A DNA stretch of 64,000 nt, from NCBI GenBank assembly GCA_030704615.1, contig CM060733.1, positions 28,768,001 to 28,832,000 on the forward strand, in the 5' to 3' direction. Source of the stretch: Takakia lepidozioides. Taxonomy: Eukaryota; Plantae; Bryophyta. This document shows positions 8,813 to 63,343 of this stretch, piece after piece (position 1 is the stretch's first letter; each line of letters starts with the position of its first letter). The position numbers and the translations under genes were made by a program. The notes beneath the pieces are model-generated. The model saw only the letters and a list, made by a program, of their open reading frames with translations. It ran no database searches and was not told the origin of the DNA.

Positions 8813-9030
8813 CCACATCGAGAATTTTTGCGTTCGCAGGGCCTTTGGGGCCTAGTTATTGGGCCAACCACACAGAGCAGATTGATGCTTGTGTAAAGGG
8901 ATTTGTAGAGGATATCTGGAAAACTCGGATCAATTGTCTGTTCCAAGGTAAGTCATGCTACCAGTGCTAGCCCCTGACAAAGGTAGTTTCTGTCCCTTTG
9001 TGTTCCGCTCAAACTGAGCGTGGGGTCACT
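8813..9030 (+). mobile_element. Third long copy of the LINE 3' end, cut before its terminus
   Basis: Matches ~590-800, including gcccctgacaaaggtagtttctgtccctttgtgttc. Stops at ggggtca without the terminal atggccacaaggcta. Confidence 0.85.
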
Positions 9031-12807: not shown

Positions 12808-15306
12808 CTCCGGACACAAGCAACAGAGAGTGAAAATACCACTCGCGTTTCCCGGCACCCGCCTATCAACATCGCAGCTGCCTTCCCTCTGCTGCTCCAG
12901 CGGAATTGATTCTCTCCACAAATTTCTGAAATATGCACAACATCATTATACCTCCACATCGAAAAGGAGCAAAATACCTCCGGTCATTTCCACGCCTTTC
13001 AAGTGAGGAACGTTCAAAGGTGAACATCACACATCTTATGAAGCGCTATGAAGCACTATATTGGACACAGCCGCAAAAGCTACAACCAGTGCAGGCAGTT
13101 CTATTTTCAACTTAACCAGTTCCTCTTCTCAGCAGACTGATGGGTGAACATATTAGATTGCTGACATTTTCAGCCAGTGTGGGCAATGATTATGTTGCAA
13201 GCCTCTCGATTACTTGACGTAACTGTGTTCTAACATCAACCAAGGAATCACGAAGTACAAGTCAAACCAATTTCCTTCAGCTAACGTCCAAGTATAGTCT
13301 GTCTTGTCATGAATGCAAGTGAGGATAACTAGACCCAACAGTACATTAGCTTCGACAACAACGAGAGCGAGAGAAACAGAGAGAGAATGAGGCACTTCAG
13401 TATCTCACATAGAAGTGGGTAGCCGATGTAGAGACTCGATAATGCGGACTGACCTTCATTCCTACTGGCAGTGGGAACTGGCAGCCACTAACGATTACCA
13501 CGTAATCATTCTGTAGACATACCGTCAAACAACCTCTGTTGGGTATTAAGGGAATTGGTTTCGTCTGCTATCCACAAAAGGAGAGGTTGGAGAAAGCTAG
13601 AGGGTATCTTGTGCAGCTGCAGGTGCTTACTCTTTCAGAGCAGAGAGGTACGACAGAAGCGACACGCAAAAGAGGGAATGCCACCTACCTGTGAGATACG
13701 AAAATACAGATATACGACTAAGCAGGATTCGACTGGTAGGAGAAGAGGCAGGGGACACGAAGGATGACCCTGTCAATGATTTCCAAGAATGCTCGGCTAC
13801 GGAACGAGGCGCGACCTCAACCACTACTGATTGTCGGAACCCAACTGTGAGCCCTCATCAAACTACACCGGATGACCTCTGACCTGCAGGAGATACAACA
13901 AGACTGACAGTGTTCAGGATTTCACACACTCGCGTGAGAGAGAAAGCCAATCTCGCGCGGGAGAGACATCCCACTAGCCTAGCCTATGTCAGAAAGCTCC
14001 TGAAAAGTTCCGAGACCAGAAATCTGCTGGATCTACTGCAACCATAGCCCGCCAAGGCCGCCACCCACAGCAGCCCATACGTTGCAGGACACTGCAAATG
14101 TACAGTACAAACTTATCGCCCATCGAGACATTAAAGCCATGCGCCGCAAGCAGGCCTGACTTCCGAAGCAGGTGGCGCGCTAGGAATCATGCATGGCGAG
14201 CCGTGCTGCCAGCATTACCCCTCTTATTAATGAGGCTCATGCGATCGTCCCCCATTTTCCTTTTAATCTTTGCCTCCTTTCAGGTTTCAATCCTTGCTTT
14301 TCCTTTCGTCAACATGTTCTTTTCCCTCCATAGATTGTGCTCCGAGCTGGATGCGTGTTTAAATTATAGATTCGAACCTACCACGCCCGACACGAAGCAT
14401 GTCAACGTTCTTCCAGTGCGCTGACAGAATCACTGTGCTCCTCTCACTTTTTGTGTTTCAGGCTCTCACATCGAATCCGTTGCAGACGAGGAAATAGTGC
14501 AATGGGACCCTCTGATGCCGGTTTCAAACACAATCCTACCCTCACTCCTGCAAGACAGTCTTCCGAAGTTTTTTAAGGGGAATGTGCTGCAAGCTCAAGC
14601 CTCAGACATTCTAGTAGTAAAGCAAGTGGAAGATATGCAAAAGCAAATGCAGGGTTCACACAATAAGATGTTGAACTGGAAGTGAAAGCACATCTGTCGT
14701 GCTGCATCCCTTCAGTTATCTCAACTCAAAGGCAGGAGAAGAATCAAACAATGACTCTCACAAACATCTTAAGATGCATACTGTTGGGCTCTTACCACTT
14801 CCATCCGCATATGACTGTCAGAATCAAAAACAGATTGATGCTTACGCAAAGTGAAAAACAGACCAATTGGCCTCTTCCCTTATTTCCAAAAGTTTCTGCT
14901 TGGAAACTTGTCTATTTCCAACAACTTGTCTTACAAATCACCTCAATCTTGGAGGCTTGTAAACAATTTCCATTTTACAGTGAGTGCTGTCAGACCAACT
15001 TGAAGTCACGATTCAGAACCCTCAATCTTGATTAGTATGTTAGTAATTCTGCCCGCAGGCAGGGAAGGAAAATGGAAACAATGTTAGTAAGGACTAATGT
15101 ACTTGACCGTAGGAGAGGCCAGCCCAGGTTTGCTGGAGCCCTCAATTCTAGCTAGAGAATGTACTGATGCCATTCCCTGCGAACGTTGGCTTGCCATTGC
15201 CTTAAGGCCTCTAGCTAGAGAGCCGCCTACTACCTTCATATCACCAACACAAATTAAAAATGTATCCTTACAAATAGACAGCAATGAAATAAACCAGTGC
15301 AACCAA

Positions 15307-18300
15307 TCACTTTCTCAATCGTTTCTTGGCTTGCTGTTCAGGTACCCTGCTTGGTTCTTTCATTGAGCTCAGTGTCTTCCGTAGACCCCGGGCAGGTCGT
15401 ATGAGACTCTGAGCCAGTGTGTCCTGGGACGTTGATGATACCCGAGCAGCTATGGAAGCTTTCAAATTCAAAGCTGACTTGCCGTCTCCAACAACATCAC
15501 GATCCCTCACTTTCGAAAGGCTTTTCCCCTTACGCAACAAATCATCATCCTCAATTTCGTCCCTCTCCTTCCCCCTATCTTTCTCTCCCTGCTTTTCTCT
15601 CTCATCTCGGACCTTCTCTCGTACCTTCCCTCTCCCTACTCCCTTGTTTGGAACTGCCGGTCGCTTCAAATCATCCTCCCTCGTCTCTCTGAGCTTCCCT
15701 CTGCCAGATGCCTTGTTTGAAGCCTTATTCAGCAAAAGGCCCCCCAACAGCTCTTCACGTGGTGGTTTTGCCCTTCCAAGCACACCTCCTTTATGCAGCT
15801 TTTTAATCTCCTTCATCCTTCCATCAACCTCTTGATCATCCTCTAGTGAGTCTCCCCTTTCCTCAACCCGGCTAGTGCTAGGGACACCCACAACATTTAC
15901 ACTCCCGCTACGGGCACCCCCACCCTCTGAGTCCATCACAGCCTCGCTTCCTGATGTTTCTACAGCCGACAGCCGAGCACCTACTCTCTTCTTGCTGCCA
16001 CTTTCAGGCAACCCCTGGGTGACAGGAGAGGAGGCCCCTATTTTCATTGCCCCTACCCCAGGGCTAGGGGTTACCCCTACTTTGGTGAAACCACCTCCCA
16101 TTCCCACAGCCTTTGGCTTTTTGAGTTCCCTTGTCCGTGTAGCAGGCCCATCTTGCTTCAACAAAGCCTCTGTCTTGAAGATTTTATCCATCTCCTTTGT
16201 GGCCTCCTGACGCAGGGCCTTCGCACCTAAAAATTCGGCTGACTCACTCGGATAATAGACCAACGCGTTGTTGAAGATCAGTAGCAGGTCACGGAAGAAC
16301 TCCTTGCTCCCTGAGTATGCACCCTCCTCCAGGCGTGCCCGAATGATGGTTAAGTCCATATGTCTCCTGATTAGAAGATCATATCTAGAATCCTGCATAC
16401 ATTTACAGCTGTTCATTACTATTATCACATTGTTTCAGATAAAGTCACTGATGTAAAGCAGGCTGCCTTCAATGCTCTCAACAAAATGAAAAACCGTAAC
16501 ATACATTGTGATGCAAGGGCAGCTGCTGGCGGAAAGTTTTGCCGTAAGAGCGAAGGAACTTTGCAGGGCCTAAGCCACCACAGCAAGAGCACACTGGAAG
16601 CACAAACCAGTTGAATGGTTCGAACTTCTATGGCCAACTGCCATTTCAAAGGCTAAGCCATTATTAGAGGTGTAAAAATTTGGTAGCTTGCAGGGAGTTC
16701 CTAAAACAAGTTTCAATGATTTGGTGATCTTGTCATAATCAAGTAATCCATCAACCATGGAGCAAAATTTCCAAACCTGAATCTCCTGCCGCCCTCTAAA
16801 CAGGCATGCTGACTTATGGGCGCATATATTTCGAAGGCACTCGAGAAGGGGTAGCAACTTCCCCGGGACCTTTGGTTCCCTCCGGTTGCGTCTACTGGAT
16901 GGAGACATATCATCAATACCATCCATTGGGGACCCTGCCTCACTCTTATCCACCTGACTGTCCCCGTAGTCTCGAGTCCCTTGCCTTCCTTCTTCTCCAT
17001 CATCATCACCACCATCCTTGGACTGCTCATGCACACTACCACTTCCCTCATGGCTTGAGAGCCTGCCCTTGGATTCCATCACACCAACTAGAGATTCCAC
17101 TGGGCTCGTTGGTTCTCTTGCTACTTCCATAGCTGGCGATGAAGATCTCTGCCTGTTCTCTTTCTCCTCTTTAAAATTGTCCATCTCTGTTACCTCAGTT
17201 TCCATTTCAGATTTCACATCTGTAGCTTGTGTAGCTTGAGGGTTCAACCGGGAAACTTCTGGATGCTCCTCTTCCACGACTTGGGGTTTGACTTCCTCAA
17301 CAAGCTCAGGTTTAACTATTATTTCCTCTGTTTCCGCCCTCCCTGAGCCTTCTGGGCCCTGTCCATCAGCACCTCCGGACCCTGAGCCAATGCAAGGCAA
17401 TGGCAAACACCCATTGGGAAGCCCAGAGCCTTCCAGTGAACTAATCTCCTTCCCTACATCGACATCCATGACATCTTTGCAAACTTCAGCATCCTGCTCA
17501 GTTCCTTCCCTGGGAGGACTTGAAATTAACTCCCTGGATACTAACTGCCGCTCATCTGCAGACACTCTTGGCACAGAGCTCATCTCACCCACATTCACAT
17601 TCCCTTGTTCCGGAAGATTCTCTGCATCAGCCCCCTCCTGTTTAAGACATAGACGACGATCTTGCCTGTCATCCCCATTCCCTCCATTAACATCTACTTC
17701 CTGAGGCCGTTCACTGACATCTGCTTCCATCTCCACATGCAAGGAAAGCTGTTGGGTGTTGGAATGATCAAGTCCCTCTGTGACTTGATGAGAGGTATCC
17801 CCTTGGGAAGGAATGTCCACCACTGGTCCTGCAGGTATGAAAGCCTCCAAAGCAGATGATGGGGATGGTGATGAAGCTGCAGGAGGCTCCGACACCAGAG
17901 GCTTCGCAGCCACATCTATTGAGAGAGTAGATGATTCAGGAATTGTATCAGATACAGAGTCATACACCATCCGTAGCAAATCCATAGCATTTGCAGAGGA
18001 AGGATGTGCCAGCTCTTGCTCTTCAGATCCAGGCTCATGGAATGGGCTCTCTGTTCCTGCCAGGCTCTTAGCACTGGGCCAATCAATGCTCAGACAGTCA
18101 GGAGAGACAGAAACGATTTCTGTGCCAATCAAATCAGCTTGAGGTTTGTCTGAAGAAACGAGTGTAGTCTTTGCAGTAGCAACCTCCACTTCAGACACCA
18201 CATCCGACTGCACAGACGAGCTCAGTTGGCCGGTCATTTCAGCTCCGGGATTGTCTGGGGAGACAGGTCTACTCTTTGGGTTGGCTACATCAGCTGCAGG

Positions 18301-21289
18301 CTCATCCAAAACAACAACAATCTCCCTTTCAAGAGTATCTCTTCCTGACTCAAAATAGACAGAGTTAGGAGCACAAATGGGGATAATAGAACTTTTCGCA
18401 AGCTCCTGAGCTTCCAGCATGTCTGGATTAACAACTGGGTTCTGCCCGAGACCATCATTTTCTAACTCCCTGAATGCTGACACAGACAGCACAATGTCCA
18501 GGTCTTCAGACTCATTCAAGCTTCCAGTATCAATAGAGGCTGTGGTATCTAGCACATCAGCAGCCTCTGTGCTTGGCATGCCCATATTTGTCACCTCTAT
18601 TGCTGATTCAGTGAGTGCCAAACCACCCACTGGCCTTGGCTCCAAGGACTGTTCCTTCTCAAATTGAAAGAAATCACCCTTTTGATGCTTCTGATCATCT
18701 GAGTCAGATGTCAGATCAACCAAGGACCCCTGCTTTACAGAACCCTCTGCTGAGTCTTGTTCCTTTTCTGCAACCACCTCGCCAACGGTCTCAACGAATG
18801 TTTCCGATCGGATAACTCCCTCGCCATCACGCTGCCTATGAGGGCTTTGCCCGACGTGAATAACCATTTCACCCTCGTCTTGTGTTTCCACCAATTCATT
18901 TCCCATCTTTTTGTCCAATAGACCGTTGCCACTGTCGTTCTCATCAAGCTCTTTTACTTCCATATCCTGCTGGTTCTCTTCCAACTCCACTGGACTATGA
19001 TGTTGTCCTTCATTCATTTCTTCAACCTGATCAGATGTTGCCACAATACCCTCAGCTTGTACGTCTTCAATTTTTTCTAGTATCTCTGTCTCCATGGATG
19101 TGGAAGGCAGGGGAGTGGAAGAGGGTGCTGACTCCCCACTTGCCCAATTATCCCTTTCAGGTTGTTCTAAGATAGGGGTGTGACTATCCAAGTCAATGTC
19201 CCTAACAAACTCAAAATTTCCAGCAGCAGCCATACTTCTATCTTTTCCATTACTCCGACAACCATCTTCACTTCCTTCAACCTCAGCAACTTCTGCTGCT
19301 GGGAAGTCACTTTCCTTGGCCTCAGCTATTTCCTCTTTCACACCTTTGAGCTTGAATGAGTCTTCATCTACAGTAAGCAGAACATTTCCACCAGCTTCAC
19401 GGCCCCCAACCAAGAGCTCTGCTGGCTCAAGAGCCACATCATGTCCTTTATCACTATCAACTGGATCTGCCTCTGGGGACTTGCAAAGTTCCTCATTCTC
19501 TCGTGGTGATGAAACAACTAAGTCTGGTTCCACAGCTTCCAAACAATTCACCCCAGTCCCTGAGACCACAACCGGCTCAATGGCCCCTGTTATAATACCA
19601 CATGCAAGTTGCTGTCCCTCCAACTCCTGATGATCCACACTGCTAGCATTTCCCTTAGTATCATTGCATGGCTTACTGTCCACATTATTGACAGTGATTT
19701 CTGTAGCATTGGGAGAAGCGGCCTGGAATTCCTTGTTGGCATCATGCCACTGTTCACCTTCTAAAAGTAATTCTGACCGACTTGGATCTAAAGATTCCTT
19801 AGAGTTCTCTGGGGCAACAGAGACAGATATGTCAGAGACTGCAGTATCTGAATTCTGTGTAGAGAGCTTGTTGGCAACGGATTTCAAGCCTTCGTCAGGA
19901 AGTCCATGATCAGTTGGACTACAAGGCACAGAGTCCTCGTGGCTGGAAGCTAACAAGGGCTCATTTGGTTGAGCTACAGCCACACTTTTCCCCGCCTGTT
20001 TGTTGACATGCGCCCTCTCAGCTTTTAATCTTTTGATCTTCACCTGAAGTGACCTGAATAACATGCCAACACGTTTTTTGGACCTTGAAAACATCTCATG
20101 CTGACAGAAGCACTAGTTAGAATTACATATGGATCCGAAAATTGCAGGCTGTCGTGCTATCCCAAGGGACAGCAAGACAACATCAATTCCTCGAAGTACA
20201 TCCAAAGTCCAAACATAGACCTACCTAATGACCTGAGTAGATCTAACATGACATACCCAATAGACCCGTCATAGCGCTCAAGTTCCCGCTTAAGGTGTGC
20301 TACTCTCAACTTGCGCAACTCTTCAAACCAGGGCATGCTGTTGCTCAACTCTTCATCCCTGAAAACACAAAAGAACACAAACGCACCAAAAGAAATCAAT
20401 AACAGTTGAGCCACTCCATGCTCTCTCCAGAGATGCCATCATATATTCTCTGATACAGGGCCTATAATCTAGATATGAGGATGATTCTACAAGGTTCTGG
20501 AAATCAAGAACGGTGGAAGTACCTGCTGATACTGCAGCTGCTGGTGCTGGCATACCGCCCTTTCAGAGCATCATACTTATGCTTGCATGCCTGTCAAAAG
20601 CCAACCAACACAATTGCTCAGAATGAGATTTGTCTTTCCTACCATACTACTGGTATGTCTGTGAAGAAACTAGTCAGCCTATCCTACTACACAACTCCTC
20701 TTTCAGAGAGAATCTAGAGGACATGGACCCTCTAATTATTATGGTATTGAGCTATAAGTTCAAGAAAACGAGAGATCGTAGTCCACACATAACGTCACCA
20801 AAGGAAGAATCTTCGGTCACTTAACGAGACATATCACGTAAATTCTATCTTCAAACGTGAAACCTAGACTCCAAACTCACCGTTCACTTCCAGCTCCTCT
20901 TTTCGACTTCATTTCGATTGAAATTCGCTTTACAAACTCATGTAAGATAGACCCACCTTTGGTTTTTCAAGGGGCCTGGCCATCCAAGGCAGGGGTGGAC
21001 TTCAGGATGTCAAACCCAGATCCCTGTAACATGAACTTGATAAAGGGGAAGAAGGGGGAAATAAGCTCCTTACTTCTTCAGAGAAATATAAGGGACAAAC
21101 TTTGAGAGAGATCGCTCGATCTTTGAGCTCTGAAGAGATGAGATTCCAATTGTTGGTTCCATGTCTTTTCACAGCACTGACCAGCAGCAATTCTTCACAG
21201 GTCCCCCAGCATCCGGCCCCCAATCCAGATGCCTCGGGCAGCTCTGGTGGTAGGGTGGCAGCCACGGCCAAGACTTCATGCTTCCCCAT
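15307..21289 (-). CDS. SANT/Myb-like plus bromodomain protein (plant DNA-binding bromodomain family)
   Basis: WGTCEELLLVSAVKRHGTNNWNLISSEL (SANT) and PWFEELRKLRVAHLKRELERYDGSIGSLQVKIKRL (coiled coil). A large acidic exon spans 16777-20053. The bromodomain is split by an intron (CAHKSACLFR...Q|DSRYDLLIRRHMDL...FFRDLLLIFNNALVYY). Confidence 0.9.
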
Positions 21290-22320: not shown

Positions 22321-23029
22321 TTGGTTGTTACAAAGGTGTCCACCTTCCTACCATAAAGCAATAGCTTTTCTGGGTCAAGTGACACCATAAGTTACGCTTG
22401 CTTTCGCCACGCATCCACCTGTAACTGGGTGTAATTTGAAAGAGGCAGAAAGTGCTCAGCAAAGTCAATCGCTTATTACCAAACTATAGCTCAATTGGTA
22501 TGTGAGGAGGTTAGGTAGCGCGTAAGCATGCTCACGTGAGCACAAGGGCAATTTCCACGAATTTCCACAGCGAAACGAAATTGACGAAACTAACAATTTT
22601 GCGAAACTAACACATAAAGAACAAGTAGCCCCTTCTAAGCGTGGGTTTTTCTCACGTTGTGCTCACACGACCCTTTTCATAACAGACATGAGAGTGGGCA
22701 GTGAGGCCTAAGCTTAAATTTAAGATCATCACCAATGGATAATTTCGCACGGCGAAACTTTGTACCAATCAGCCTGAGAAGAAATCACATTGTAGTTGAA
22801 ATGATGAATATGTCACTTTTAAAGGCCCTACCCATGTATATTTTTGTAGAACAAAACTCTCTCCCCTAACAACTAGTACAATTATATATTGAGATATGCA
22901 TTTGCAGTGCGAAACTCTGATCCCTGAAGAGAAGTTGGGTAGCGTGCGGTTAGGATGCTCACAAACAAAAAAATATGAAAAATATTCTTGAGATGTCCAG
23001 AGAAAATCGCACATGTTTTTTAACACAAG

Positions 23030-23943
23030 TTTTTGAACAAGAACAATGTCAGACATGAGTTTATTGTTGAGAAACTCTTTTGATACAGAAAAGCATTTCA
23101 ATTTCCTCGATTCATATCCCTTCATATTGTCTCAAAGCATATTGGTTTTTGAACAAATACACTGTCAGACGAGAGTTTTGTGTTGAAATACTTTTTTGTT
23201 ACGGCTAAGTAGTTCAAATCCCTCAGTTCATATCCCTCCATAAACATTTTCAGACAAGAGTTTCGTGTTAAGGAAATGATTCAGATTTTTGAATAAAACC
23301 GATGTTAGACAAGAGTTTTGTGTTGAGAAACTATTTTGTCACGGCAAAGAGTTCAAATCCCTCAATCCATATCCCTCCATATTTGTTTGAAAACATGCAC
23401 ATTTGTGAACAAAAACACTCTCAGAGAATAGTTTCGTGTTGAGAAATTCTTTTGTTATGGCGAAACAATTCAAATCTCTCAGTCCATGTCTCTTCATATT
23501 GTTCCAAAGCATGCAGGTTTTTGAGCAAAAACACTGTCAAAAAAAAAGTTTCGTATTGAGAAACTTTTTTGTTATGGCGAAGCAATTCAAATCTCCTAGT
23601 CTATGTCCCTCCATATTGGTTAAAAAACATGCAGGTTTTTGAACAAAAACACTGTTCCAGAAGAGTTTCGTATTGAGAAACTCTTTTGTTACGGCGAAGC
23701 AATTCAAATCTCTCAGTCCACGTCCGTCCATATTGGTTAAAAAACATGCAGGTTTTTGAACAAAAACACTGTCACAGAAGAGTTTCGTGTTGAGAAACTG
23801 TTTTGTATGACGAAACAATTCAAATCCCTGAGTCCATTCCCCTCTATATTGGTTCAAAAGCATGTAGGTTTTTCAACAAAAACATTGTCCCAGAAGAGTT
23901 TCGTATTGATAAACTCTTTTGTTACGGCGAAACAATTCAAATC
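23030..23943. repeat. AT-rich ~116-117-bp tandem array, left part (about 8 units)
   Basis: The unit aagagtttcgtgttgagaaactcttttgttacggcgaa...catgcaggtttttgaacaaaaacactgtc recurs at e.g. 23311, 23427, 23661, 23778 and 23894. Confidence 0.9.
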
Positions 23944-24630
23944 TGTCGTGCGCATACATATCGCTACACAATTACATCGCTGTCCAAAACCACACAACAC
24001 ATGTGCACCACACACTAGTATACCACTAGTCCAACCACCAGTCCAACCACTAGGCTACAACTAGTCAGTCACTAGGCTGCCACTATGCTGCCCACTATGG
24101 CAGTCACTAGTCCACACAATGGATAAAGAAGAAGAATACAAGCACGAGCTCACGAATCTGAAGCATAAACTCATGCATATATAACCTCATCACTCAAATA
24201 CAAGTCAAGCCAAGTGCACCCCACGCCATCGGGAATCCACACTACGGCGCCATAGCTAGGCGCGGTGAGGCTCAACTCGAGAAAGATGAGCCTTCCGCGC
24301 TTGCCGTGAAGATAACCACTCCAGGGCCTAAATCTGCCTTGACCCCCTGGATTGACACTTGGGCCAATCCCAAATGTCAATATGTAAAAGCTAGTTATTT
24401 CCTAGCTAGTTTCACACTAGTGGTAAAATAACTTGACAGCTGTCGTGCGCATACATATCGCTACACAACTACATCGCTATCCAAAACCACACAACACATG
24501 TGCACACCACACACTAGTATACCACTAGTCCAGCCATTAGTCCAACCACTAGGCTACAACTAGTCAGTCACTAGGCTGCCACTATGCTGCCCACTATGGC
24601 AGTCACTAGTCCATACAATCGCCCCCCTAG
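23944..24630 (-). repeat. A-B-gc-A terminal repeat block plus polypurine tract
   Basis: The A segment is duplicated at 23944-24120 and 24441-24619. The B/A junction reads ttgaca-gc-tgtcgt. On the minus strand the PPT ctaggggggcg (24620-24630) directly precedes at-TGT. Confidence 0.9.
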
Positions 24631-24869
24631 CTGGTGCTTAGGTCCCTCTAAGTCCAGGTAGCCACAAGATGTGATAGTGACCATAGCCTCACTAAGTCCT
24701 CCACCACTATCCCTACTACACTCAAACTCGATAGATCAAGAGGCCGGGTGCAAGAGTTGCCCCATCGTTAGTCGTCGTCTTGCAACCTGTGAACTTGAGC
24801 TTGGGATCTCATGTATTGACTCCTATGAGCTTGGCCTCCCATGTCTTGTTAGCTGCCTCCAGTCATGTC

Positions 24870-27800
24870 CACTGCCACTATCCCAAGCAGTGTGGACACA
24901 ACCAATCTCCGTCAGGAACCTTCTCAAGAGGTGGTGTCAAGCATCACATATGCCAACCCCTTGAGCATCGATCACACACCAGCATGGTGGCTGCCCCTTT
25001 GGCAGACCACAGAGCATGCACCTCAAACCTGCAGGTACCACTGCCAAGTTTGGGTCAACTCTGCCATCGACATTGGGAAGGTGACATGACGCACAATTAC
25101 GCACATGGTCCTTCCAAGTCATGCCATCCCGACCCTCTAAGATCAGGACCCTCGAGGGCAACACCTCTCGAACCCTCAGAATAACACGCCCTGCAGTAAC
25201 ATCCAGAGTCGTAGGAGCAGTCTGCTGCAAATAAACATAGTCACCAGGGCTAAACCTTCGAACCCCAGGACGATATCCTCCACCACGTATAGTGGCATAT
25301 CTCAACGTATCACGGTGTTGTGCAATGGCAAGGTTCTCAAAAGCCATGGGCATGACTTTCTTGAACAACCCTGCACGCTGATCACATGCACGTACCCACA
25401 CGTCCGGATCGTCAAGGTTAAGGACTTGAGCAGTGTCCCTACGAATGGCTGCAGGCAAATCCGGCTCTCAGCCAAAGAGAAGGAAATATGGTGAGAAGGA
25501 GGCAAGTGATGCTTGTTTGCTGAACCTGTAGCCCATGGCTAACCAATGAACCTGAATATCCCAATCTCCTAGGTGTCCCTTCTGCAAGCCATACTTGCGC
25601 AAACCTCTATTTACCGTTTGAACAACTCTCTCTGCTAAGCCATCGGCCTCAGGATGATTCCGAGAAGTGGTGCGGTGGTCTATCAAGGATTTATCACACA
25701 AAGCCTGAAACTCCCCCAAGAACTCTCTCCCTTGGTCCGTGAGTACCTCAGCTGGAGCACCAAATCGGCTAAGCACACGATCCAAGAATGCATACGCAGC
25801 CCCCTCACTAGCCTTATCAGGCAATGGAACCATTTCAATCCACTTGGAGAAGTGCTCCACCATCATCAACACATATCTGTGGTGGCGCATAGTCAGTGGC
25901 AACGGTCCTGCGAAGTCAAGACTCCACCTGTAGCCCAATCCCATGATTGGTAAAAGATGCAACTGTGGTGTAGGGGCGTTGAATGAAGCACGCACCCTGT
26001 CACACACCATGCACCTAGCCACGAACTATTGCACCTCTGTATGCATACCACGCCACCAATACTGCCCCTGCAGTAAACTGTGAGTGCGTCGCACTCCAAA
26101 ATGCCCCAACTCCTCATGGGCATGCCGCACTAACCGTGCACGCTGTGTGGGGTGAGGCACAATCCTCACCCGACCATCCTCCCACACTCGAAGTAGGTGT
26201 ATCCCCTCCCACTTGAACCTCTTGGCTCGTTGCAGGATCCGATCCCTCTCCCTGGCAGTCACAGTGGCTGTCGTGTCTCCCGTGCGGAGGTAGTCCAACA
26301 CAGCCGAATCCTCATGTATATCTCTGGCACCACCTGGCTCATCACTAGCCTCAGGGTCCTCAGACACTCCGTCTACAGTCATCCCTGTTGTAGGTCCAAC
26401 CTGACTTCCCGATGCCAAGATACACAAAAATGCAGATGCGTGCCATCCCGGCACCATCTCCTCGTCCGTCTCACCATGCCACCGAGCTCCAGTGTCATCT
26501 TGCTGGCTCATGCATGGATTGCGACTCAATCCATCCGCATCCCGATTGACCAAACCTGGTCGATGCACAACCTGAAAGTCATACTCCTGGAGTATGAGTG
26601 CCCACCGTGCAAGCTTCCCCGTAAGCTTGTCTGACTCCATCAACCACTTGAGTGGCTGGTGATCCCGTGACAAGGGTGAAAAGATTGCCGTATAGATAGC
26701 ACCTAAAGTGTGCCACGGCCCACACTGCAGCTAAGCACTCTCCCTCATATGAGCTGTACTTAGCCTCTGCAACATTGTTCGAGCGGCTAGCATAAGCCAC
26801 TACGAACTCTCTTCCCTCATCATCCACCTGTGTGAGCACCGCTCCAAGCCCCAGCATGCTCCAATCCGTATGCAGCTGAAAGGGACGCCCCCTGATAGGT
26901 CGTCTCAGGATAGGCGCCGAGGTCAACCTCGCCTTGAGCTCTTGAAAAGCTCGTTCCTGCTCATCTTCCCACTGCCACTCCTGGTCCACCTTGGTCAGCT
27001 TGGTTAGAGCCTTTGTAATGGTACTAAATCCCTTGACAAACCGTCTATAATAGTTTGCCAACCCCATGAAAGCTCGAACTCGGCTCACATCCGTGGGGCG
27101 TGGAATTTGTGCAATGGCCTCTACCTTAGTTTGTTGTACCCCCAATCATCCAGGATATATCATGTGACCCAGATACTCAATCTGGTTGTGGAAAAACTTG
27201 CACTTCCCCGGATGCAACTTCAATCCGTGTGCTCTCAAGCGCTCCAATACCACCTGAAGGTGTCTCTCATGCTCCTCCATCGTAACACTAAAGATGATGA
27301 TGTCATCTATGTAGCACCGAGCAAAGTCCACCCCTGCTAGAATCCTATCCATGACTCTCTGAAACTCTGCATGAGCATTCTTAAGCCCAAATGGTAAGAA
27401 CCGCCACTTATATAGGCAATCCTTGCCGTGCTCATTGATCCCCCAGAATGTCGTCTTCTGCTTGTCCGCCTCCTTGATTGGCAACTGGTGATATCCGGAT
27501 CGTAAATCCAAAGTGATAAAGGCCTTAGCATGCCCGATGGCATCAAAGATCTCCTCTGGTGTTGGCATGGCATACTTATCGGACTTGGTCTGACGATTTA
27601 CAGGCCGGTAATCACCGCACATACGTCTCTCCGTCCAATTGCCATAGACATCTTTCTTGGCTGGCATCACTGTGGCTGAAGCATACTCTCCACCAGAGAG
27701 CTCCACCAAACCTGCCTCCCAGAGATCTTGAGTTCTCATCTGAATCAAAGACCTCTCCATGTCACTGTATCTATAGGGTCTCCGAAAGATTGGCGTGTCA

Positions 27801-27880
27801 GTGGCCAACTCAATACAGATCTCTTGACCCTTCAGTGCTCCCAAGTCCTTCAAACTGAAGGCAAAGCAATTCATGTAAGC
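24870..27880 (-). pseudogene. pol RT - RNase H - integrase - PHD finger of family 1 (stops and frameshifts)
   Basis: [75 protein letters not shown], and a C-terminal CMLC...C..C...H..C...WLCPHC. Confidence 0.92.
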
Positions 27881-28012
27881 CCTCAGGAACCGCCGTATAC
27901 GTCGTCTCTCTCCTCCGGTGACAATGGGTCCAATGTCAGGCTCCCAATTATCCTCCGTAACTGCAACCTTAAGTCCAGTGGGCTTAGAGGTAGAGGACGC
28001 GTCCAGTGGTTG

Positions 28013-29470
28013 CTATGTTGCAACCTCTTGAGCAGTACTCCCTGCCTGCTCAGTCAATGACAAGGCCTCATCCTGCCCCATCATCTCATCCTTGAGGACC
28101 TCCTCAACCCGAGAAGAATCCCCAACCTCATCCATCACAGCCGCCTTGGCTGCCAACTCCCTCTGAACCTCGAGCACCTCCCACGTGTGCCATGGATGCA
28201 TGCACCTCGTGGTCCTCACATGCTCGCCCCCACTCACTGCCTGTACCGTCTCGGTAGGCAGAGAGACCATCGAGGGAAGTGTACTCCGCACTCTGCGTTG
28301 CTTAGCCAGAGCCAAGCTGATAATCCAGGTTAAGCAATTGAGATCCATTGCTTGCCCCAACACTTGACGACGTGATGCCTCAGAAAGAGACAACACCACC
28401 GTGGTACCAGTGGTAAAACCCATTGCCCGCTCACGCTCGTCAGCATTAGGCTCCACTAACTGCTGCAACTGAGCATCCCACAGGAGGCCAGGTCCACTAT
28501 CCCGGAAAGCATGCGATCCTGGGAAGCTGAGCAGTGTAGGTAATGCTGCTCGTGGTTGACCCACCTTGTTGACCACTGCCAAAGGCGAACGGTCATCGTG
28601 TCTCACACGCTGAGACTGCCTCCCTGTGTCCAGAATGTTATCCACTGTGAGATGTGCTGGCCGCTGCTCCCCATCAAATGCACGCTTGAGCAGTGCGGGT
28701 GGCATCAAGTTAGTCCACCATAGCCGTGGACGATGAGCCCGTGACCCCACTGTAGCTGCATCTAGCAACACTGCTGACCCAAGCCACGACTGGACTTGAT
28801 GCACACTGGCCATCACCCTGGCCCGAGAATCGCCCATCAGTGGCACATTCTCCAAGATGTATGCTGGAGATACAGCTTGATGAAGCTGCAAGTGACGCGA
28901 AACCCGCACCATCTCCCAAAACAGACCCGACCTCGAGTCTCGTAATCCATTGCCATGCCCGGCTGATGAATGCCCTTGGCAGGGCCAACCTGCCACTACC
29001 AGATCAATGGAGCCAACTCGCTCCAAATCCTGCGCCCCCAGTAACGAAATGTCTGCTGGCAAGGCCTGCTGATATCCACAAATTGCAGACACCGACAACA
29101 ACTCAGGGTACCGCTGAGCAACATGGCGAAGTGAAACGCGTCGTGCAGTCTCATCCCTCTCCACATACATGTAACGCCGAACTCGTACACCTGCCTGTAA
29201 CACAGCAGCCAATCCGGTGCTTATCCCACCAAACAAGTCCAGAAGACAAATGCCTTCATCCGGATACTGCCACACAATAGGTGTGGTGTCCAATGGAGAC
29301 AACTGAGGTGGTCCTGGTGCAATCCCCGCACTCTCCTCCTCTCCTGACGGTACAAAAGCCTCCACCCAGGCTTGTTGCATCCGTCGATCAGCATCCCGCT
29401 GCAAATCCTTGCTCGTGCCCCACAATGGAGTCTGAGCAACCATGGTAGGCAACTCCGCCATACCATACAT
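28013..29470 (-). CDS. Retrotransposon-encoded DNA (cytosine-5) methyltransferase, DNMT3-like
   Basis: Ordered C5-MTase motifs: I LDLFGGISTG, II YVERD, IV DLVVAGWPCQGHS, VI YILENV, VIII AHRPRLWWTNL, IX ERERAMGF, X RRQVLGQAMD. The frame is open across the whole domain. Confidence 0.92.
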   Translation of the reverse strand: MYGMAELPTMVAQTPLWGTSKDLQRDADRRMQQAWVEAFVPSGEEESAGIAPGPPQLSPLDTTPIVWQYPDEGICLLDLFGGISTGLAAVLQAGVRVRRYMYVERDETARRVSLRHVAQRYPELLSVSAICGYQQALPADISLLGAQDLERVGSIDLVVAGWPCQGHSSAGHGNGLRDSRSGLFWEMVRVSRHLQLHQAVSPAYILENVPLMGDSRARVMASVHQVQSWLGSAVLLDAATVGSRAHRPRLWWTNLMPPALLKRAFDGEQRPAHLTVDNILDTGRQSQRVRHDDRSPLAVVNKVGQPRAALPTLLSFPGSHAFRDSGPGLLWDAQLQQLVEPNADERERAMGFTTGTTVVLSLSEASRRQVLGQAMDLNCLTWIISLALAKQRRVRSTLPSMVSLPTETVQAVSGGEHVRTTRCMHPWHTWEVLEVQRELAAKAAVMDEVGDSSRVEEVLKDEMMGQDEALSLTEQAGSTAQEVAT

Positions 29471-29476
29471 GTCATC

Positions 29477-30465
29477 CTACTCTCCCGGAGGTGGTACATC
29501 CTTTGAATGAGCGTTTCCCTCGAGCAACTCTCTAGGCCAACTCACTGCCGTTGTGAATGCTGCTAGTGTCGGCATCTTGCCTCGCTGGGCAACCGCAACT
29601 CCTCCTATGAACGTCACAGGAAGCTGCACACGCCGGCCCTCCCCTGACTGCCATGTAGGCCTATAGGAACCTGACTCCTCCCAAAAATCCAGGGTGAAGC
29701 CCATGGGGTACAACATTGCCCCACCAACCAGGACATCGTATGAGACCACGTCTGTCACAATGGCCTTGGCTCGCATCACTGAGCCATCTGTAGGGATCCG
29801 GCCGTAGTCTGATAGCCAACTCACGCCGTGTCATGCCCCGAGCTTGCTCCGATCCTCCCAGAGACGTCTGTATCTGGAAAGGACAAGGCTCCATATCCGC
29901 CTCCGTGAGGCCCAAGCCTGCAATAGCAGCTCTGCCCAGCATCAGTGGCTGAGCTCTCGAGTCCAACAAGACCCGCAGTGGCCGGTACCTCTTGCCTGCC
30001 GGTCCACTCAAACAGAAAATGCTATCCTGGTTGTCTAACATGACAACTCCAGGTGTCACCATGGCGCGCTCAATGGCTGGCTTAGCTGGCAGCTCCATCA
30101 ACCTGGCAGCTGCAGCTTGCCATGGCACCGCCGTGGCAGTCTTGACCCTCAAATCCGAGGATCCCTCCGGCACTACACCTCCCAGTATCTCCGCAGAAGA
30201 TGAAGTAACCTCCCGACTCTCACAGAGTGTAGCTGCCAGCCTGAACACCTCAGCTGGTCTTACCCCCGGCGTCGCAATTATGGTAGCCGAGAACAATGGA
30301 GCCTGGCACACAGATGTGGCCGCTCCTAGCAGAAAGGCGTAAATAGTTGTGGATTGCGCATTTGCTGCAAATCACACCAACTATCAAACTCTTGGATAAA
30401 ATCATCCAACTCGATGGTGCCCACCACCCCAGAGTACCTTCGTGGCCCCTTGGTAGCTCCATACA
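29477..30465 (-). pseudogene. Aspartic protease plus short gag N-terminal remnant of family 1
   Basis: LRVLLDSRAQPLMLG (DSG>DSR) and YDVLVGGAML. A capsid-like start, RYSGVVGTIELDDFIQEFDSWCDLQQ, lies at ~30340-30440 and then jumps to the pre-PR linker. Confidence 0.7.
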
Positions 30466-31329
30466 TCTCCTCCATTGTGTCCCACAACAATGACAAAGAA
30501 CAACTTGCACCGCCGGTATGAGTCCTCCTGATTCACAATCCGAATCAGAACCTTCCGTAGAAGACACAGGAGGTGAAGGTGGCCTAAACCGTACACCTTG
30601 TCTCGTGTACCCACTAGTATCGCTAGTGCTTGAACCGGCACTGTCCCCAGCGACTAATGGCACCTCTGTGTTGACACTCAACCGGTCATGAACATGTCCT
30701 TAACCCCTTCTCCACAAGGTAACCGGGTAGAGAACCTGTTGCGGCTTATGGTTTGGAATACTAAGTTCTTAACATAGCCTACACCTGTACCTGCATCCAC
30801 CGCAAGCACTCCTATGGTTGGCTGGTCATCACCTCCAACCTCACCACAGGAGAAACAATGATGGTCTGGCTAGTCATCACCCCAGCATCGACAACATGCT
30901 CTAGGACTGGCCGGTGATCAAATCCAGACCAATCACCTATAAAAACAAGCGCCCACACAAAACTAGCATGGCGCACAGTCAAGCATGCAGGTATGGAGGG
31001 GATCCAAACACAAGAAATCAGAACGACAACTCCCCCACACCAAAAACAACTCCACGGTGTTGCTCCTGCAAGGACACCCCAGCCCAAACCCGAACTGACT
31101 CTTGCCTCCACCTGCGGAAAGGTCTTGGCCTAATGAGAGGGTGGAAACTACAAGGAAGAGAAGCTAAAGCAATGCCTAACCCCAGCATGCCCTCATCCCA
31201 ACACTCTTCCTCTCCTCTATTCCCTCACTTGCATGACCATGGGAATATCATGAAGATACTCCTCAAACCGCCCTCCACGAGCTTCAAAATTCGGCCTTCA
31301 AGACCACATGCCAGTCCTTAGGCAGTCCA

Positions 31330-31790
31330 CCAGTGCCTCCACGAGTCAGCACAGGCCGTCCACAGGTCAACACGAGCCACCAGACCAGCACAGGCCCACA
31401 CAGCTCACTGGTCACAGCCATCACAGTCCCACAGGCCACTGGGCACAGCCCGTCACAGCCCGTCACAGCCCCACAGGCCACAGGGCATAGCCCGCCACAG
31501 CCTGTCACAGCCCCGCACAGCCCGTCACAGCTCGCCACAGCCTGTCACAGCCCCGCACAGCCCGTCACAGCCCCACAGGCCACTGGGCACAGCCTGTCAC
31601 AGCCCCTCACAGCCCGTCACAGCTCGCCACAGCCCCTCACAGCCCCAAAGGCCTCAGGCACGGCCTGACATAGCCCCTCACAGCCCGTCACAGCCCCAAA
31701 GGCCTCAGGCACGGCTTGTCACAGCCCCGCACAGCCCGTCACAGCCCCAAAAGGCCACCGGCACAGCCCGTCACAGCCCCATCCATGGCC
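31330..31790. repeat. Short-unit (~10-11 bp) degenerate tandem repeat in the retroelement leader
   Basis: Many copies of (gt)cacagccc / cacaggcc. Confidence 0.85.
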
Positions 31791-33315
31791 GCTCTGGCAG
31801 TTTAGCCATTTCTCCAAGGGGTTTAGCCACGCCAAGCTAGGGTTTGTATCTCTTGGACTCTAGGCTTCTTTCCACCGAGCTATGGCGGCTGTGAGGAAAT
31901 CAGCAAGGTATTCTTGCTCTTTCGGCTCCCACACACCACCATAATAGCCCTAAGCCATGAGGTGGTTGCCACAAACCAAGCCTTCTTTCTCACTTAGCCT
32001 CCCCAAACACGCCACTAAACTCAATGGCAAACAACCAAGCCCTGCTGGTTCCCAGCCCTTGTGATCACTCATTCAAGCACTCTCATTGGCCATAGCATCT
32101 ATCTTAGAGCCTATTCCAACCCCCTACACCTGCTGCTTCAAGAGTTGCGCTCCCTTCAAGCTTGAAGTTGAAACCCCAACTCACATAGGCCCTACAAGTG
32201 CTTTTCTTTCACTCCAAGTGGAAACCAGCCCTAGACCTTCCATTCTAGCTCTCTAAAGCTTGAAAACAAGAGCCTCAATGGCCTGAAGGCATGCTCCACA
32301 CATGCCCCACTCTCACCATAAGAGAATCAGCTCCTTTGCTTCATTTCTTGCACCCACAAACCTGAAAATACAAGCTTCAGCAGGCTGAAAGCATGCTCCA
32401 CATGCCCTACAGGGAAACCAGCCCCTTCCTTCCTTTCTTGCACTCCCACACCTGAAAGTGCAAGCCTTCACCAGGCTGATAGCATGCTCCACACATGCAT
32501 TGCCCTCACATAAGGGAAGTCAGCCCTTCCCTCTTCCTTGCTTGCCCTCCAAGCTTGAAGATGGAAGCTTCAATGAGCTGAATACATGCTCCACACATGC
32601 AACCTCTTCACACAAGAGATATCAGCCCCCTATCTTGGCTCCTTGGCTCCTTGATGCTCTCTAAGACAAGACTAAGCACTCCACAGCCTTTGCCAAGCTC
32701 CTGAAACCCTAAGGCTTACATTTCCAGCCACAAGACACTTCTCTTGTGGTGCAAGAGCTCTTCTTCCAAGCTCTGAAACCCTAGGTGCACATTCCATGGC
32801 CTTGCCGCACCTCTTAGCTCCTGTTCCAGCCCTGCTCTTGCCATGACAAGAGCCCTCTCAATGCTAAAGCTCGAGATTGAAACCCAATCTCACCATACTC
32901 CACAAAGTGCACTGATTTGCCCCAAGCCAAATCAGCCCTTTTGCTTGGTCTTGCAATCCTTCACACAATGAAAGCTCGCATTCCCAAGTCCAGTTCTCAG
33001 CTTTGCCACCAAAGCCACTATAACCTGCTCTTGACTGGTCCTCTTCCCAATCGTGCTTGCTCATGCATGTACACAATCTGAAACCATCAAGGTGCTCTGG
33101 AATTACCTGCAGCATGGTGTTTTCATCTCTGAAGCTGAAGATCGAATGCCAAGGTCTACCACCTCGTAACCCACATCGCCTCCGCTTCTAACAACCAAGA
33201 GCTCCACGGTGCTCCTTGCATAACAACTTGGTTTCTCTCATTCTCAAGCAAAAACCACAAGTGCTACAACTAACTCGCATCTGACACTCACAGATACGAG
33301 CTGATCTTTCTCGAG

Positions 33316-33632
33316 TGATAAAGAAGAAGAATACAAGCACGAGCTCACAAATCTGAAGCATAAACTCATGCATATATAACCTCATCACTCAAATATAAGT
33401 CAAGCCAAGTGCACCCCACGCCATGGGGAATCCACACTACGGCGCCATAGCTAGGCGCGGTGAGGCTCAACTCGAGAAAGATGAGCCTTCCGCGCTTGCC
33501 GTGAAGATAACCACTCCAGGGCCTAAATCTGCCTTGACTCCTGGATTGACACTTGGGCCAATCCCAAATGTCAATATGTAAAAGCTAGCTATTTCCTAGC
33601 TAGTTTCACACTAGTGATAAAATAACTTGACA
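33316..33632 (-). repeat. 5' half-LTR (segment B only) of family 1
   Basis: About 6-7 differences from 24122-24438. No A segment lies beyond it; it ends ...aacttgaca followed by the TSD. Confidence 0.92.
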
Positions 33633-34290
33633 AATCTCTTAGTCCACGTCCGTCCATATTGGTTCAAAAGCATGCAGGTTTTTGAACAAAAACATTGTCA
33701 TAGAAGAGTTTCGTGTTGAGAAACTCTTTTGTATGGTGAAACAATTCAAATCCCTCAGTCCATTCCCCTCTATATTGATTCAAAAGCATGTAGGAAGAGT
33801 TTCGTGTTGAGAAACTCTTTTGTTATGGCGAAGCAATTTATATCTTTCAGTCCATGTCCATCCATATTGGTTCAAAACATGCAGGTTTTAGAACAAAAAC
33901 ACTGTTAGAGAAGAGTTTCTGTTGAGAAACTCTTTTGCTACGCCGAACTAGCAGTTCATATCTCTGAGTTCATATCCCTCCATATTGGTTCTAAGCATGC
34001 AGATTCTTAAACCATAACACTGTCAAACAAGAGTTTCGTATTGAGAAACTCTTTTTTTATGGCAAAAGAGTTCAAATCCCTTAGTTCGTATCCATCCATA
34101 TTGTTTCAAAAGTATGCAGATAAATACACAACCACAGTCGGATAAGAGTTTCGTGTTGAGAAACTCTTTTGTTATGGCGAAGTATTTCAAATCTTTTAGC
34201 TCATATCCCTCCATATTTGTTCAAATGCATGTAGTGCTTTGAACAAATTCACTGACAGACAAAAGTTTCGTGTTGAGAAACCTTTTTCAA
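33633..34290. repeat. ~117-bp tandem array, right part (about 6 units)
   Basis: Resumes in register (aatctcttagtccacgtccgtccatatt...) with the unit interrupted at 23943. Confidence 0.9.
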
Positions 34291-38213: not shown

Positions 38214-41200
38214 CTACAGAAAGAAAAGGGTAAAAGCAGCAACCATCGAAACCAGCAGAGGCGCGCCCACTCTGAATGTAGCTGAACTTCTGTTTGGTAG
38301 AGTCGGATAGTCCTGAGGATCAGGAAGCACACAATCATCCCCATTGAAGTAGACACGACGGGGAAAAGCCCACCCATCGCTGAATGTAAATGATGAATCC
38401 TTCCTGAACAGTAGTTCAGACTGAACATTTCCATCTCGGCCGGCGTGCATGAGCCAGTCATTGTAATACTTTATACCCCAGAAAACAGCCGAATCATCTG
38501 CACCAACAAACAAAATTACAGATGTCCAAATATAATCAGCTCTAGCGGTTGAAGATTCTTATTTCAGCCATCCAGTCGTACACTTACATATTCATCTCCT
38601 CCTAATCAACATAACACCTGGCTTTGCTGAAATATCTTGAGGTGCTCAAAATGTGAGTACGTACAGACGAAATGACTTGTCTACTCCATGTTGTGGCCTA
38701 CAAGCAAACTGCACGCGCTAGCCGTTGGTGCATGGTCCCAGATCAAAATGTTTTTTATTTTGCTTTGCAGAAAATTTTGGCACTCCTGTGATGCCTGTGT
38801 GCAAATGCATATTATACATTTCAGTTATAATTGCACACAAAAGAATTGAATGACTGCAACTAGCTTTTCGGCCCTAGATTTCCTTCAAAGTAGACTTTTA
38901 TCAAAGATTACTAACTCAGGTGCTTCCGGCTTTACGATTTTAGGAAAAGTAGGACACTCACTTCTGTGTGACCCGTATGGATGCAATAGCTTGTAGCTGA
39001 AGCTGAAAGCCTCTGTGAAGTTGTCAAAGTTTGGGTGCTGAAGTGCTAGAGTCCACCGTGTGAAATTTCGGGACAAGTCACGATTTGTGATGGTGACTTT
39101 GACTCGCCAATACTCCTTATAATTAGTCTTAACATGCCAGTGAATTTTCACAGGACACATATCCCTGGTACAAAACATTGTATCAGGCTGGTTGACATCT
39201 CCGGTGCTTATAGCAGGAATATGAGAATACCGCGTTCTCCTGCAATCCATCTTTCCATTGTGTTAGTACGCAAAGACATTAGCCACACAGTGAGGATCTA
39301 GCTAGCTCGAGTGTCTTAGGTTTAAAGTATAATGAGATGTAACATGCTGAAGTCTTGTCTTAGACTACAAACAACTTTCCAAGAAGTTTGAAATTGTTTG
39401 CAGTCCCTTATTTGAAGAATGTGCAAGCGTGGTGCTTGGCATAGCTAGGCCACTTTCAACATACTACACTCCCAAGGTGCTAGCTGACTGAATTTGGGAG
39501 CTCCCCAAAATTAGTGTTGTTTCGACTTAAGCCCCCTGATACATTTAAGTCTTCCATAAATATTTGCACTCTAAGCACACTGACCAGTTAAAACGAAATT
39601 GGCTACTGTGTTTTGTTGAACGTGAACAAAAATGATAAAAAAGTGAAGGCTAGAGGATCTCTCATCTGTTTGGAACAAGAAATCATTGAGGCCGGGCTCT
39701 TACGGATCCAAGCAGGCCTCTAAGTTGGAATCGGCAGTTCTCAAAGCTGTTGAGGTAGATGCACAGGCGCATGCACATTCCGCGCAAGGGATAATGGTGT
39801 CGTTGTAGAAGGTTGACAAGGACACACAGCATGTTGGTGCCTTCTGCGCCAAGTACTGGGAATAGGTGCATGTAACATTCCAAGTCACTGCACCCGTGAA
39901 GCAAATACAGTTCACACACGTTCTTAACCTCTTATCTGATTTTGCTGACAGCTACCTGCAGTGGACGGACTAACATTCCTAATCTTGAGGATAGATGTCA
40001 GGCATGCTGCTACTCCCAGGACATTGCACGCTTTTGGATATACCACGGGGATAAGAGCCACCAGTGGCCGAGCACATAACAAGATCCATAATGCAACGGA
40101 TGAACAACAACTTTTCTTTTCCGCGGATTTAATTTGTCTAACTCACTGAATGAAGATTGTGGTACATGTCGATCATCCCTTCAGCGCATGCACTGTGTCA
40201 GAAGATAGAAAGAGACAGAATACATTTCTCAGCATATAATTACTCGAACCCCGTTTAGATTGGACAAGGAGAGGGAACGCACTGAAAGCTTGGGTGAATC
40301 TTCTCCCGTCTTCCGAAGGAAACAAGCTTGCCTTCACCTTCATAGCAGGTCCGCAGGTGTATCCAGGTCCAGGCGGCGCTCGAAGCGTGAAATTCTTCGG
40401 TAAGACAACTGTGGTGTTTGTGTTCCCTGACTTCCCCACCTTTATCTGGAAAGCAGAGAGTGCAGTCGCAGGATCTTGAGCATAGGAAGATAGCACCCCA
40501 CCTCGACAGCAGTTTGCAACTTGTTGAGTATAAGAAACATCTGGAAGCAGATCTTCAACAGCCGGATTGGGAGCACAACAGTGTGGTACAGGTGAAACGT
40601 GAAATTGAGAGCAGTCGCTCTGGAACGTAGTTTGTGCTCCAACCATGGTCCAGATAACCTCCTTCCTTGCCCAATGCCAGCCAACTGTCCAGCCAGGGGC
40701 GGAAATATGTCGATATTTTTGCCAGTTGAATATTGTAACCATAGCCTGCACGGGATCAGTGTCCATCGATCATCAGTACAGTTGCTTATCATCTCACTTG
40801 CTCTGGAAAATTTAACAGCATTTTTAGCGAAAACAGTTGACCACCTTCCCAAGAGGAGGTGGCGGATCAGACATTCCATGCATCTTCAATTTTGACAAAG
40901 GTTTTTTATCTACTTTCTTCCTTTGACACCTTTAGGACCAGCCATATTTCAGACGTGCGGCTTCATTACTCTGAAAAATGAAAGTGCTCACTGTCCAATA
41001 GAACGTAGAGAAAAGAATTTGTACAATGTAGCCATCGTCAGTCCATTCCGTGATATCCCACTTGATGGTAATATTCCCATTTGGATCCAAAAGATCAAAA
41101 GCCTCTGCACATGCGCAAAGTTGGCACAGGATAGATGAGTTTTAGATTTGAAGTGAGCAACCACAAAATCAAATGGAATGATAAGATTTGGAGAGACTCA

Positions 41201-63289: not shown

Positions 63290-63343
63290 TGCCCGACCCC
63301 ATGATGAGGCCGATCCCAAGGACTATCGCGTACTAAACTCTAA

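Follow-up and report, generated by a model that had tools for sequence, protein, structure and literature searches.

What does a cytosine methyltransferase do inside a plant retrotransposon? The role of retrotransposon-borne methyltransferases has been a question since 2018, and the sole plant example has been an alga with few copies. The window, which is the whole stretch of 64,000 nucleotides analyzed here, contains a decayed Ty3/gypsy element (23944-33632, minus strand) in which a methyltransferase domain lies between the protease and the reverse transcriptase (RT). The window copy is dead; its family is abundant and has intact relatives. We therefore consider what kind of enzyme the domain represents, how it would be expressed, how the element may integrate, how old the association is, and which function best accounts for these features.

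The methyltransferase domain

A single open frame of 487 codons on the minus strand (28013-29476) matches PF00145, the profile named in the preliminary description, with an E-value of 5e-12. The DNMT3-like C5 cytosine methyltransferase domain within it was placed at 28250-29290 (minus strand) by the frame, Pfam, structure and profile matches, and an AlphaFold model. The motifs run from I to X in order, comprising LFGG (I), YVERD (II), AGWPCQ (IV) and ILENV (VI), followed by AHRPRLWWTNL (VIII) and by ERERAMGF and RRQVLG (IX-X), with RxR intact. In the window copy, the catalytic Cys is encoded at 28979-28981 and the Glu of ENV at 28850-28852. The complete motif set in normal order, with intact PC and ENV, that had been described from the letters is thus borne out. 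Near 29113, the window copy's methyltransferase is 9 bases shorter than in other copies.

When the single sequence was searched against solved structures, DNMT3A was the best match (E 1.7e-9), followed by a plant DRM-type enzyme (1e-4) and M.HhaI (1e-3). A profile of 47 relatives scored DNMT3A at 94.7 bits, compared with 49.5 bits for the plant DRM-type enzyme and 31.2 bits for M.HhaI, and the best of 61 phage matches on the same profile reached 82.8 bits. The AlphaFold model of the methyltransferase (pLDDT 93.7) was closest to DNMT3A/B in Foldseek (E 1e-19); fold alignment to DNMT3A/B gave Z 29.0 and rmsd 2.6 over 274 residues, with ~24% identity to DNMT3A, and the next non-DNMT3 structure had Z 25.7. 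The domain is DNMT3-like by profile and fold, as the preliminary description had proposed in preference to the DRM enzymes. A DRM identity was rejected, given that the motifs run unpermuted from I to X and that matches to DRM chains are confined to motifs I-V. In the ESM Atlas, one streptophyte and two phage PF00145 clusters were tied at 0.96, while the matches in viral contigs were confined to distant phage enzymes with 24-48% identity over short segments. Since some phage enzymes score near DNMT3A and the comparison set comprised retroelement, phage and structurally solved enzymes, the tested claim is limited to "DNMT3-like"; derivation from a host DNMT3 gene rests on the available text of PMC5890265.

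Anatomy of the window copy

The element belongs to family 1 of two methyltransferase-bearing families in the window and has the ends TGTC...GACA. It lies in a 115-117 bp satellite array (23029-23944 and 33633-34286), which it splits. All coding features and repeats are on the minus strand. The 5' end is formed by repeat A1 (33316-33632; 307 matching columns with 6 mismatches relative to A2), and the long 5' leader includes a 10-base tandem repeat of ~33 copies (31381-31780) whose length varies among copies. A gag remnant (30332-30624) was detected by tblastn with P0172 and with P0099, the Marchantia protein Mp_4g09160; it has loose ends at 30332, where ~470 gag codons are missing relative to a full-length relative. 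The Gag-protease linker and aspartic protease follow at 29477-30320, with a protease-like stretch reaching 30371, the assignment being based on a Pfam protease match in the intact relative L024. In the window copy this region is broken by a frameshift near 29794 and by a stop at 29477-29479, upstream of the methyltransferase, which is private to this copy.

Downstream of the methyltransferase, a conserved in-frame stop with a readthrough-type context, TAG-CAA-CCA (28007-28015), is followed by RT (27146-28012; PF00078, E 2e-31), RNase H (26579-27145; PF17919, E 1.7e-33) and the zinc-binding and core parts of a DDE integrase (25468-26200; PF17921 and PF00665). The integrase ends in a frameshifted PHD finger (24881-25003) that is 80% identical to the intact family-2 PHD (PF00628). 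A polypurine tract (24620-24629), found at the same position in related loci, directly precedes repeat B1 (24441-24619; 172 matching columns with 6 mismatches relative to B2). The internal palindromic junction GACA-GC-TGTC (24435-24444), in which the element's two ends are joined by two bases, leads to repeat A2 (24121-24438) and to repeat B2 (23944-24120), the 3' end; these two were delimited by repeat comparison. The protease-RT-RNase H-integrase order agrees with the earlier assignment to gypsy, and the location of the domain between a protease-like stretch and RT likewise holds.

A conserved stop and the Gag-side placement

One element of the preliminary description requires revision, namely the embedding of the domain in the pol polyprotein. 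The domain instead closes the Gag-protease frame, and the conserved TAG at 28013-28015 precedes RT, so that the methyltransferase is on the Gag side and not in pol proper. Across 80 loci, which were retrieved via the methyltransferase domain and hence are unable to show its absence, the nearest upstream domain was protease in 51, gag in 3 and none found in 26; the nearest downstream domain was RT in 64, PHD in 1 and none found in 15. Both flanks were present in 65 copies (63 loci and the two window copies). The pattern TAR-CAR-YY occurs between methyltransferase and RT in 58 of these, in the RT frame in 56, and is lacking in 7, against a background of 0.19 per kb in element DNA.

The exact stop context varies. 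TAG-CAA-CCA is found in both window families and in L006, TAG-CAG-TTA in L024 and L025, and TAG-CAA-TCA in L035. An exact CARYYA match follows only 7 of the 58 stops; CAACCC, one base off, accounts for 49 and comes largely from one close family, and 14 of the 58 stops are TAA. In intact L024, a Gag-protease-methyltransferase frame of 1369 codons is followed by TAG-CAG-TTA and an RT-RNase H-integrase-PHD frame of 1047 codons; the two frames abut in register there and in L035. Many database proteins stop 95-165 residues past the last methyltransferase motif. According to the available text of PMC4132726, from which the motif was taken, CARYYA after a stop is a plant-virus readthrough signal and TAA reads through poorly. 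Judged by context and frame, the conserved stop is likely leaky. As the domain lies before it, large amounts of the enzyme would be produced alongside the capsid protein.

Split repeats and integration

The order of the window copy is A1, body, polypurine tract, B1, GC, A2, B2. Neither this arrangement nor its palindromic junction figured in the preliminary description. An empty-site joint (23937-33631) was present in contigs from three of four runs, and the element is bordered by a 4-base target duplication, AATC (23940-23943, plus strand; partner 33633-33636). A solo A-B unit of family 1 (62749-63289, minus strand) lies inside an unrelated gypsy element and has the 4-base duplication TGCC. 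Duplications of 4 bases were found at five separate insertions, namely the window copy, the solo unit, L048, L070 and L074/L077, the last pair representing one insertion site. The internal junction pattern was seen in both window families and in 9 of the 80 loci, the majority of which stop short of the junction; the spacer in the nine loci is GC in 4 and AC, GT or AT in the others. No tRNA-type primer site was found after A1, and folding produced hairpins but no clear self-primer.

Retroviral integrases use a 2-base overhang. A cut after CA on each strand of the palindromic junction would leave such an overhang, from which a circular intermediate opened by integrase is inferred; the repeat layout thus suggests that the integrase opens a circle. 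A two-LTR circle cleavable at both junctions should yield some copies that begin with B; each of the six 5' ends (five flanked loci and the window copy, two of the six being one insertion) begins with A. Two A-B joins contain additional bases: the solo unit (62920-62990) has 5 leader bases and an inverted 19-base copy of 33235-33253, just downstream of A1, and L070 has ~20 extra bases too. Such bases might be left over from a fold-back primer or from end-joining. A PHD finger follows the integrase in all 21 loci long enough to include it and is most like those of CHD4, PHF12, KDM5 and PHF21A.

Relatives, age and selection

Named relatives occur in Calypogeia, Marchantia, Riccia, Sphagnum, Closterium, Klebsormidium, Chromochloris and Scenedesmus. 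Those in Marchantia polymorpha are ~70% identical and are annotated as hypothetical proteins. Among 50%-identity representatives, the profile retrieved 694 clusters at E 1e-30 or better, a number that is overstated because the profile spans flanking positions.

Three layouts were distinguished. The window's branch has Gag-protease-methyltransferase, stop, RT-RNase H-integrase-PHD; Klebsormidium and Closterium have the same order in one frame; and a group including a Chromochloris protein has the methyltransferase between RNase H and integrase. In the Klebsormidium and chlorophyte relatives, the domain is within the RT frame. Members P0128, P0132, P0137, P0141, P0147, P0248 and P0079, which include Scenedesmus and Chromochloris, have the methyltransferase after RT and before integrase, many with EC for PC. 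Motif IV reads EC in 74 and PC in 35 of 139 distant representatives, and HRxRxxW is kept in 119 of the 139.

Trees of RT and of the methyltransferase each recovered, with support, one clade of stop-containing elements and another of elements with the domain before the integrase. All 42 retroelement domains separated from 7 phage enzymes (SH-aLRT 100), in a tree that gave a long-branch warning and was built without host DNMT3. A clade of moss and Klebsormidium only was neither recovered nor rejected (p-AU 0.12). RT and methyltransferase distances were correlated (Spearman 0.71, 27 rows), a loose sign of co-inheritance given that the rows share kinship.

Between the window copy and the 35 unsaturated of 47 other copies, methyltransferase dN was 0.24 and dS 2.4, a ratio of 0.10 that is rough because dS is near saturation; the corresponding RT ratio was 0.085 (11 of 39 unsaturated). 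The catalytic Cys and the ENV Glu are each kept in 46 of 48 copies and, together with the SAM-binding Phe, these residues are kept in 46-47 of 48. By these ratios, the methyltransferase is under purifying selection between lineages. Relatives extending from mosses to chlorophytes, combined with dN/dS of ~0.1, identify the intronless domain as old and element-borne and not as a recent capture. Two of the doubts raised in the preliminary description, neutral evolution and a recent capture of the host gene, are therefore answered. The third was absence from most family members, a point testable within the host's own family only, and such absence was not observed: among the 15 joints listed from related-run contigs, each from a single contig, none removes the domain. 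Every methyltransferase bin was covered in two of the four runs, with a contig depth unfit for ranking genes.

Function and alternative explanations

The most likely reading, which we hold to be somewhat more probable than not, is that Gag-level synthesis and packaging bring the methyltransferase into the particle, where cleavage by the protease would free it to methylate the double-stranded copy before integration; the PHD finger would then steer the copy to silent chromatin. Most ribosomes would halt at TAG-CAA-CCA, and a minority would read through to produce RT-RNase H-integrase-PHD. The protease would free the methyltransferase inside the particle, where the new double-stranded DNA copy would be methylated. 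The cDNA would then circularize, and integrase would open GACA-GC-TGTC with a 2-base stagger, generating the TG...CA ends and the A…B-GC-A-B layout. The copy would arrive pre-methylated, be guided by the PHD finger toward silent chromatin, and blend in there at little host cost. Gag-side placement predicts many enzyme molecules per particle, which favors action on cDNA. Since the Klebsormidium and chlorophyte domains lie in the RT frame, Gag-level amounts would not be required. Other points against this reading are the failure of the isolated Klebsormidium domain to methylate yeast DNA and, from the sections above, the inexact stop contexts, the EC forms of motif IV and the uniform A starts. 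Base composition lends it no help either: CpG observed/expected is 0.49 in the element, 0.42 in the host background and 0.47 in a gypsy element without methyltransferase, a background-like depletion that gives no sign of self-methylation, and CpG and CHG ratios do not separate self-methylation from host methylation.

An enzyme active in the nucleus, which it would reach as free Gag-side protein or together with the integration complex, there to methylate the target site, the newly inserted copy or other host DNA, is a less probable reading that we consider unlikely. Several of the proteins most similar to the element's PHD finger read H3 unmethylated at lysine 4, like the DNMT3 ADD domain, and the chlorophyte relatives place the methyltransferase directly before integrase, both of which would suit nuclear action; in the window's branch, however, the stop parts the enzyme from the integrase, and host CpG and CHG composition shows nothing unusual. 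It is also rather unlikely that the fold has been kept for binding and not for DNA methylation, either to clamp cDNA ends or the circle junction, to act on RNA, or to serve as a structural part of the particle. Gag-level amounts would fit a structural part, many distant relatives have EC in place of PC at motif IV, all split-repeat elements seen carry the domain (though they were found by it), and the Klebsormidium domain was inactive in yeast according to the available text of PMC5890265. Retention of the catalytic Cys, ENV Glu and SAM-binding Phe in nearly all copies, and of HRxRxxW in most distant representatives, argues against a binding-only role.

A further possibility retains the proposed role of the methyltransferase and dispenses with readthrough, with RT-integrase arising through splicing, from a separate transcript or by reinitiation. 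In its favor, the prevailing context, CAACCC, deviates from CARYYA, about a quarter of the stops are TAA, and single-sequence folds of 7 copies revealed no evident conserved 3' RNA structure. We nevertheless regard this as improbable, because the frames abut in register in L024 and L035, the exact CARYYA hexamer recurs in four lineages (the window families, L006, L024/L025 and L035), and TAA may come from TAG via ordinary decay in dead copies. Least credible, to the point of near dismissal, is a neutral passenger recently captured from a host DNMT3 gene by a few copies. Among close copies dN/dS is 0.6-0.9, and the domain is interrupted by stops in 41 of 48 copies, which would be normal for dead insertions; RT decays alike, with stops in 27 of 40 copies, and the absence of introns, the low identity to DNMT3A beside 40% to the Klebsormidium element domain, and the range from chlorophytes to mosses all oppose this explanation.

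Taken as a whole, the larger picture is of an ancient green-plant gypsy lineage, spanning chlorophytes, liverworts and mosses, that places an active DNMT3-type enzyme in every capsid subunit via a leaky stop, pre-methylates its DNA, and uses a DDE integrase to cut a palindromic circle junction. We offer it tentatively, as a combination that is on balance doubtful. If true, it would represent a third route of integration, intermediate between the LTR and DIRS routes, and bryophyte genomes with many copies would contain a source of de novo methylation carried by the element itself. A DDE integrase acting on a circle, as the repeat layout predicts, would be unusual. Because close relatives reside in transformable Marchantia polymorpha, the question is testable with natural copies. 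For annotation, element domains inflate DNMT counts in bryophytes, and tools that need two full LTRs likely miss such elements.

Family 2 and the surrounding sequence

A family-2 copy (53329-57498, minus strand) comprises B2-A2-GC-B1 repeats (53329-53749), RT, the TAG-CAA-CCA stop and the last methyltransferase motif (57391-57498), which is 67% identical and has one stop; the report that this family keeps motif X at the same position is thus confirmed. Only that motif remains because an unrelated LTR element has inserted at 57495. The RNase H-integrase-PHD segment of this copy (53842-56030) is inverted relative to its own RT and terminal repeats. The nested element (57495-63996) is a young gypsy without a methyltransferase; its LTRs are 98.6% identical, its primer site is of the tRNA-Met type, and it has a chromodomain-like tail unconfirmed by Pfam. 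A third decayed gypsy (48800-51500, minus strand) contains RT, RNase H and integrase and gave no methyltransferase match.

A host COBRA-like gene (38280-41111, minus strand), with five exons found, groups with Sphagnum and Physcomitrium at 100/100 in a tree without liverwort or hornwort rows. On this placement the host is a moss or close bryophyte, consistent with the land plant deduced earlier from the flanking genes. A large host gene with a bromodomain (15307-16434) occupies 11667-20112 (minus strand) and includes an open exon of 1180 codons (16570-20112) in which CpG is strongly depleted (0.29). Three copies of a ~190-base repeat, one inverted, lie at 614-815, 6307-6506 and 8837-9028 and are 82-88% identical.

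Comparison with known systems

The domain shares its fold and motif order with DNMT3A and DNMT3B, which are its top matches by sequence, profile and structure. It differs in having no PWWP, ADD or DUF3444 companion detected by Pfam, in reading AGWPCQ where they have GGSPCN, and in a target-recognition stretch that does not align. A CG preference is consequently not assumable, and naming CG as the methylated context would be a guess by analogy with DNMT3. The conserved stop resembles the UAG-CARYYA sites of tobacco mosaic virus and other plant viruses, as given in the available text of PMC4132726, in having a stop followed by CAR-YYA, whereas in the element it comes after protease and methyltransferase and not at the gag-pol border.

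The split direct repeats A1-B1-A2-B2 recall the tyrosine-recombinase elements PAT, Ngaro and Viper (PMC4157794, available text); the element differs from these in its DDE integrase, polypurine tract, TG...CA ends and 4-base target duplications. Membership in DIRS, PAT or Ngaro was rejected on the basis of the rve integrase and the 4-base target duplications; a Pfam search of intact L024 likewise detected no tyrosine recombinase. Membership in the chromoviruses was also rejected, Pfam having found a PHD finger and no chromodomain in the RT-integrase frame of L024. EpiLTR and DAM-LTR are likewise LTR elements with DNA methyltransferases and a chromatin reader, but they carry a DNMT4-related cytosine enzyme as an appendage of pol; in the accessible part of that report (bioRxiv 10.64898/2026.05.21.726589), the authors set the EpiLTR enzyme apart from "streptophytes (Gypsy-DNMT3)". 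The available text of PMC12344493 likewise gives "streptophytes" only, with no narrower host, and that of the plant LTR survey PMC6317226 contains no "methyltransferase", "PHD" or "Marchantia".

The closest known system is KnitGypsy-Dnmt3 of Klebsormidium nitens (de Mendoza et al. 2018), for which the available text of PMC5890265 reports a Dnmt3 domain, DIRS-like repeats and purifying selection. That text describes the domain as an acquisition of the K. nitens lineage, proposes cDNA methylation for DIRS elements, and records that the isolated domain did not methylate yeast DNA, a result its authors call inconclusive; it does not mention Marchantia, and target duplications and a junction palindrome were not found in it. 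The kinship suspected in the preliminary description is supported by the domain, which is 40% identical to KFL_009030040. Both systems share the Ty3/gypsy order protease-RT-RNase H-integrase, an intronless, unpermuted Dnmt3-related domain with catalytic residues, split repeats A1-B1-A2-B2, and purifying selection on the methyltransferase (~0.10 between lineages here, with dS near saturation). They differ in that the Klebsormidium domain forms one frame with RT and RNase H, whereas 56 of 65 copies here have an in-frame stop, and in that a lineage acquisition was described there, whereas relatives here reach mosses, liverworts and chlorophytes. Because the shared RT frame, a defining feature, is lacking, the element is a variant of the KnitGypsy-Dnmt3 type and not a plain member. 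The land-plant range, Gag-side placement, stop, junction and chlorophyte layout were not found in the literature searched, whose supplementary trees may hold bryophyte sequences. As far as that search extends, the kind of element and its repeat layout were already known from KnitGypsy-Dnmt3, and what is new here is the land-plant range, the Gag-side placement and the chlorophyte layout.
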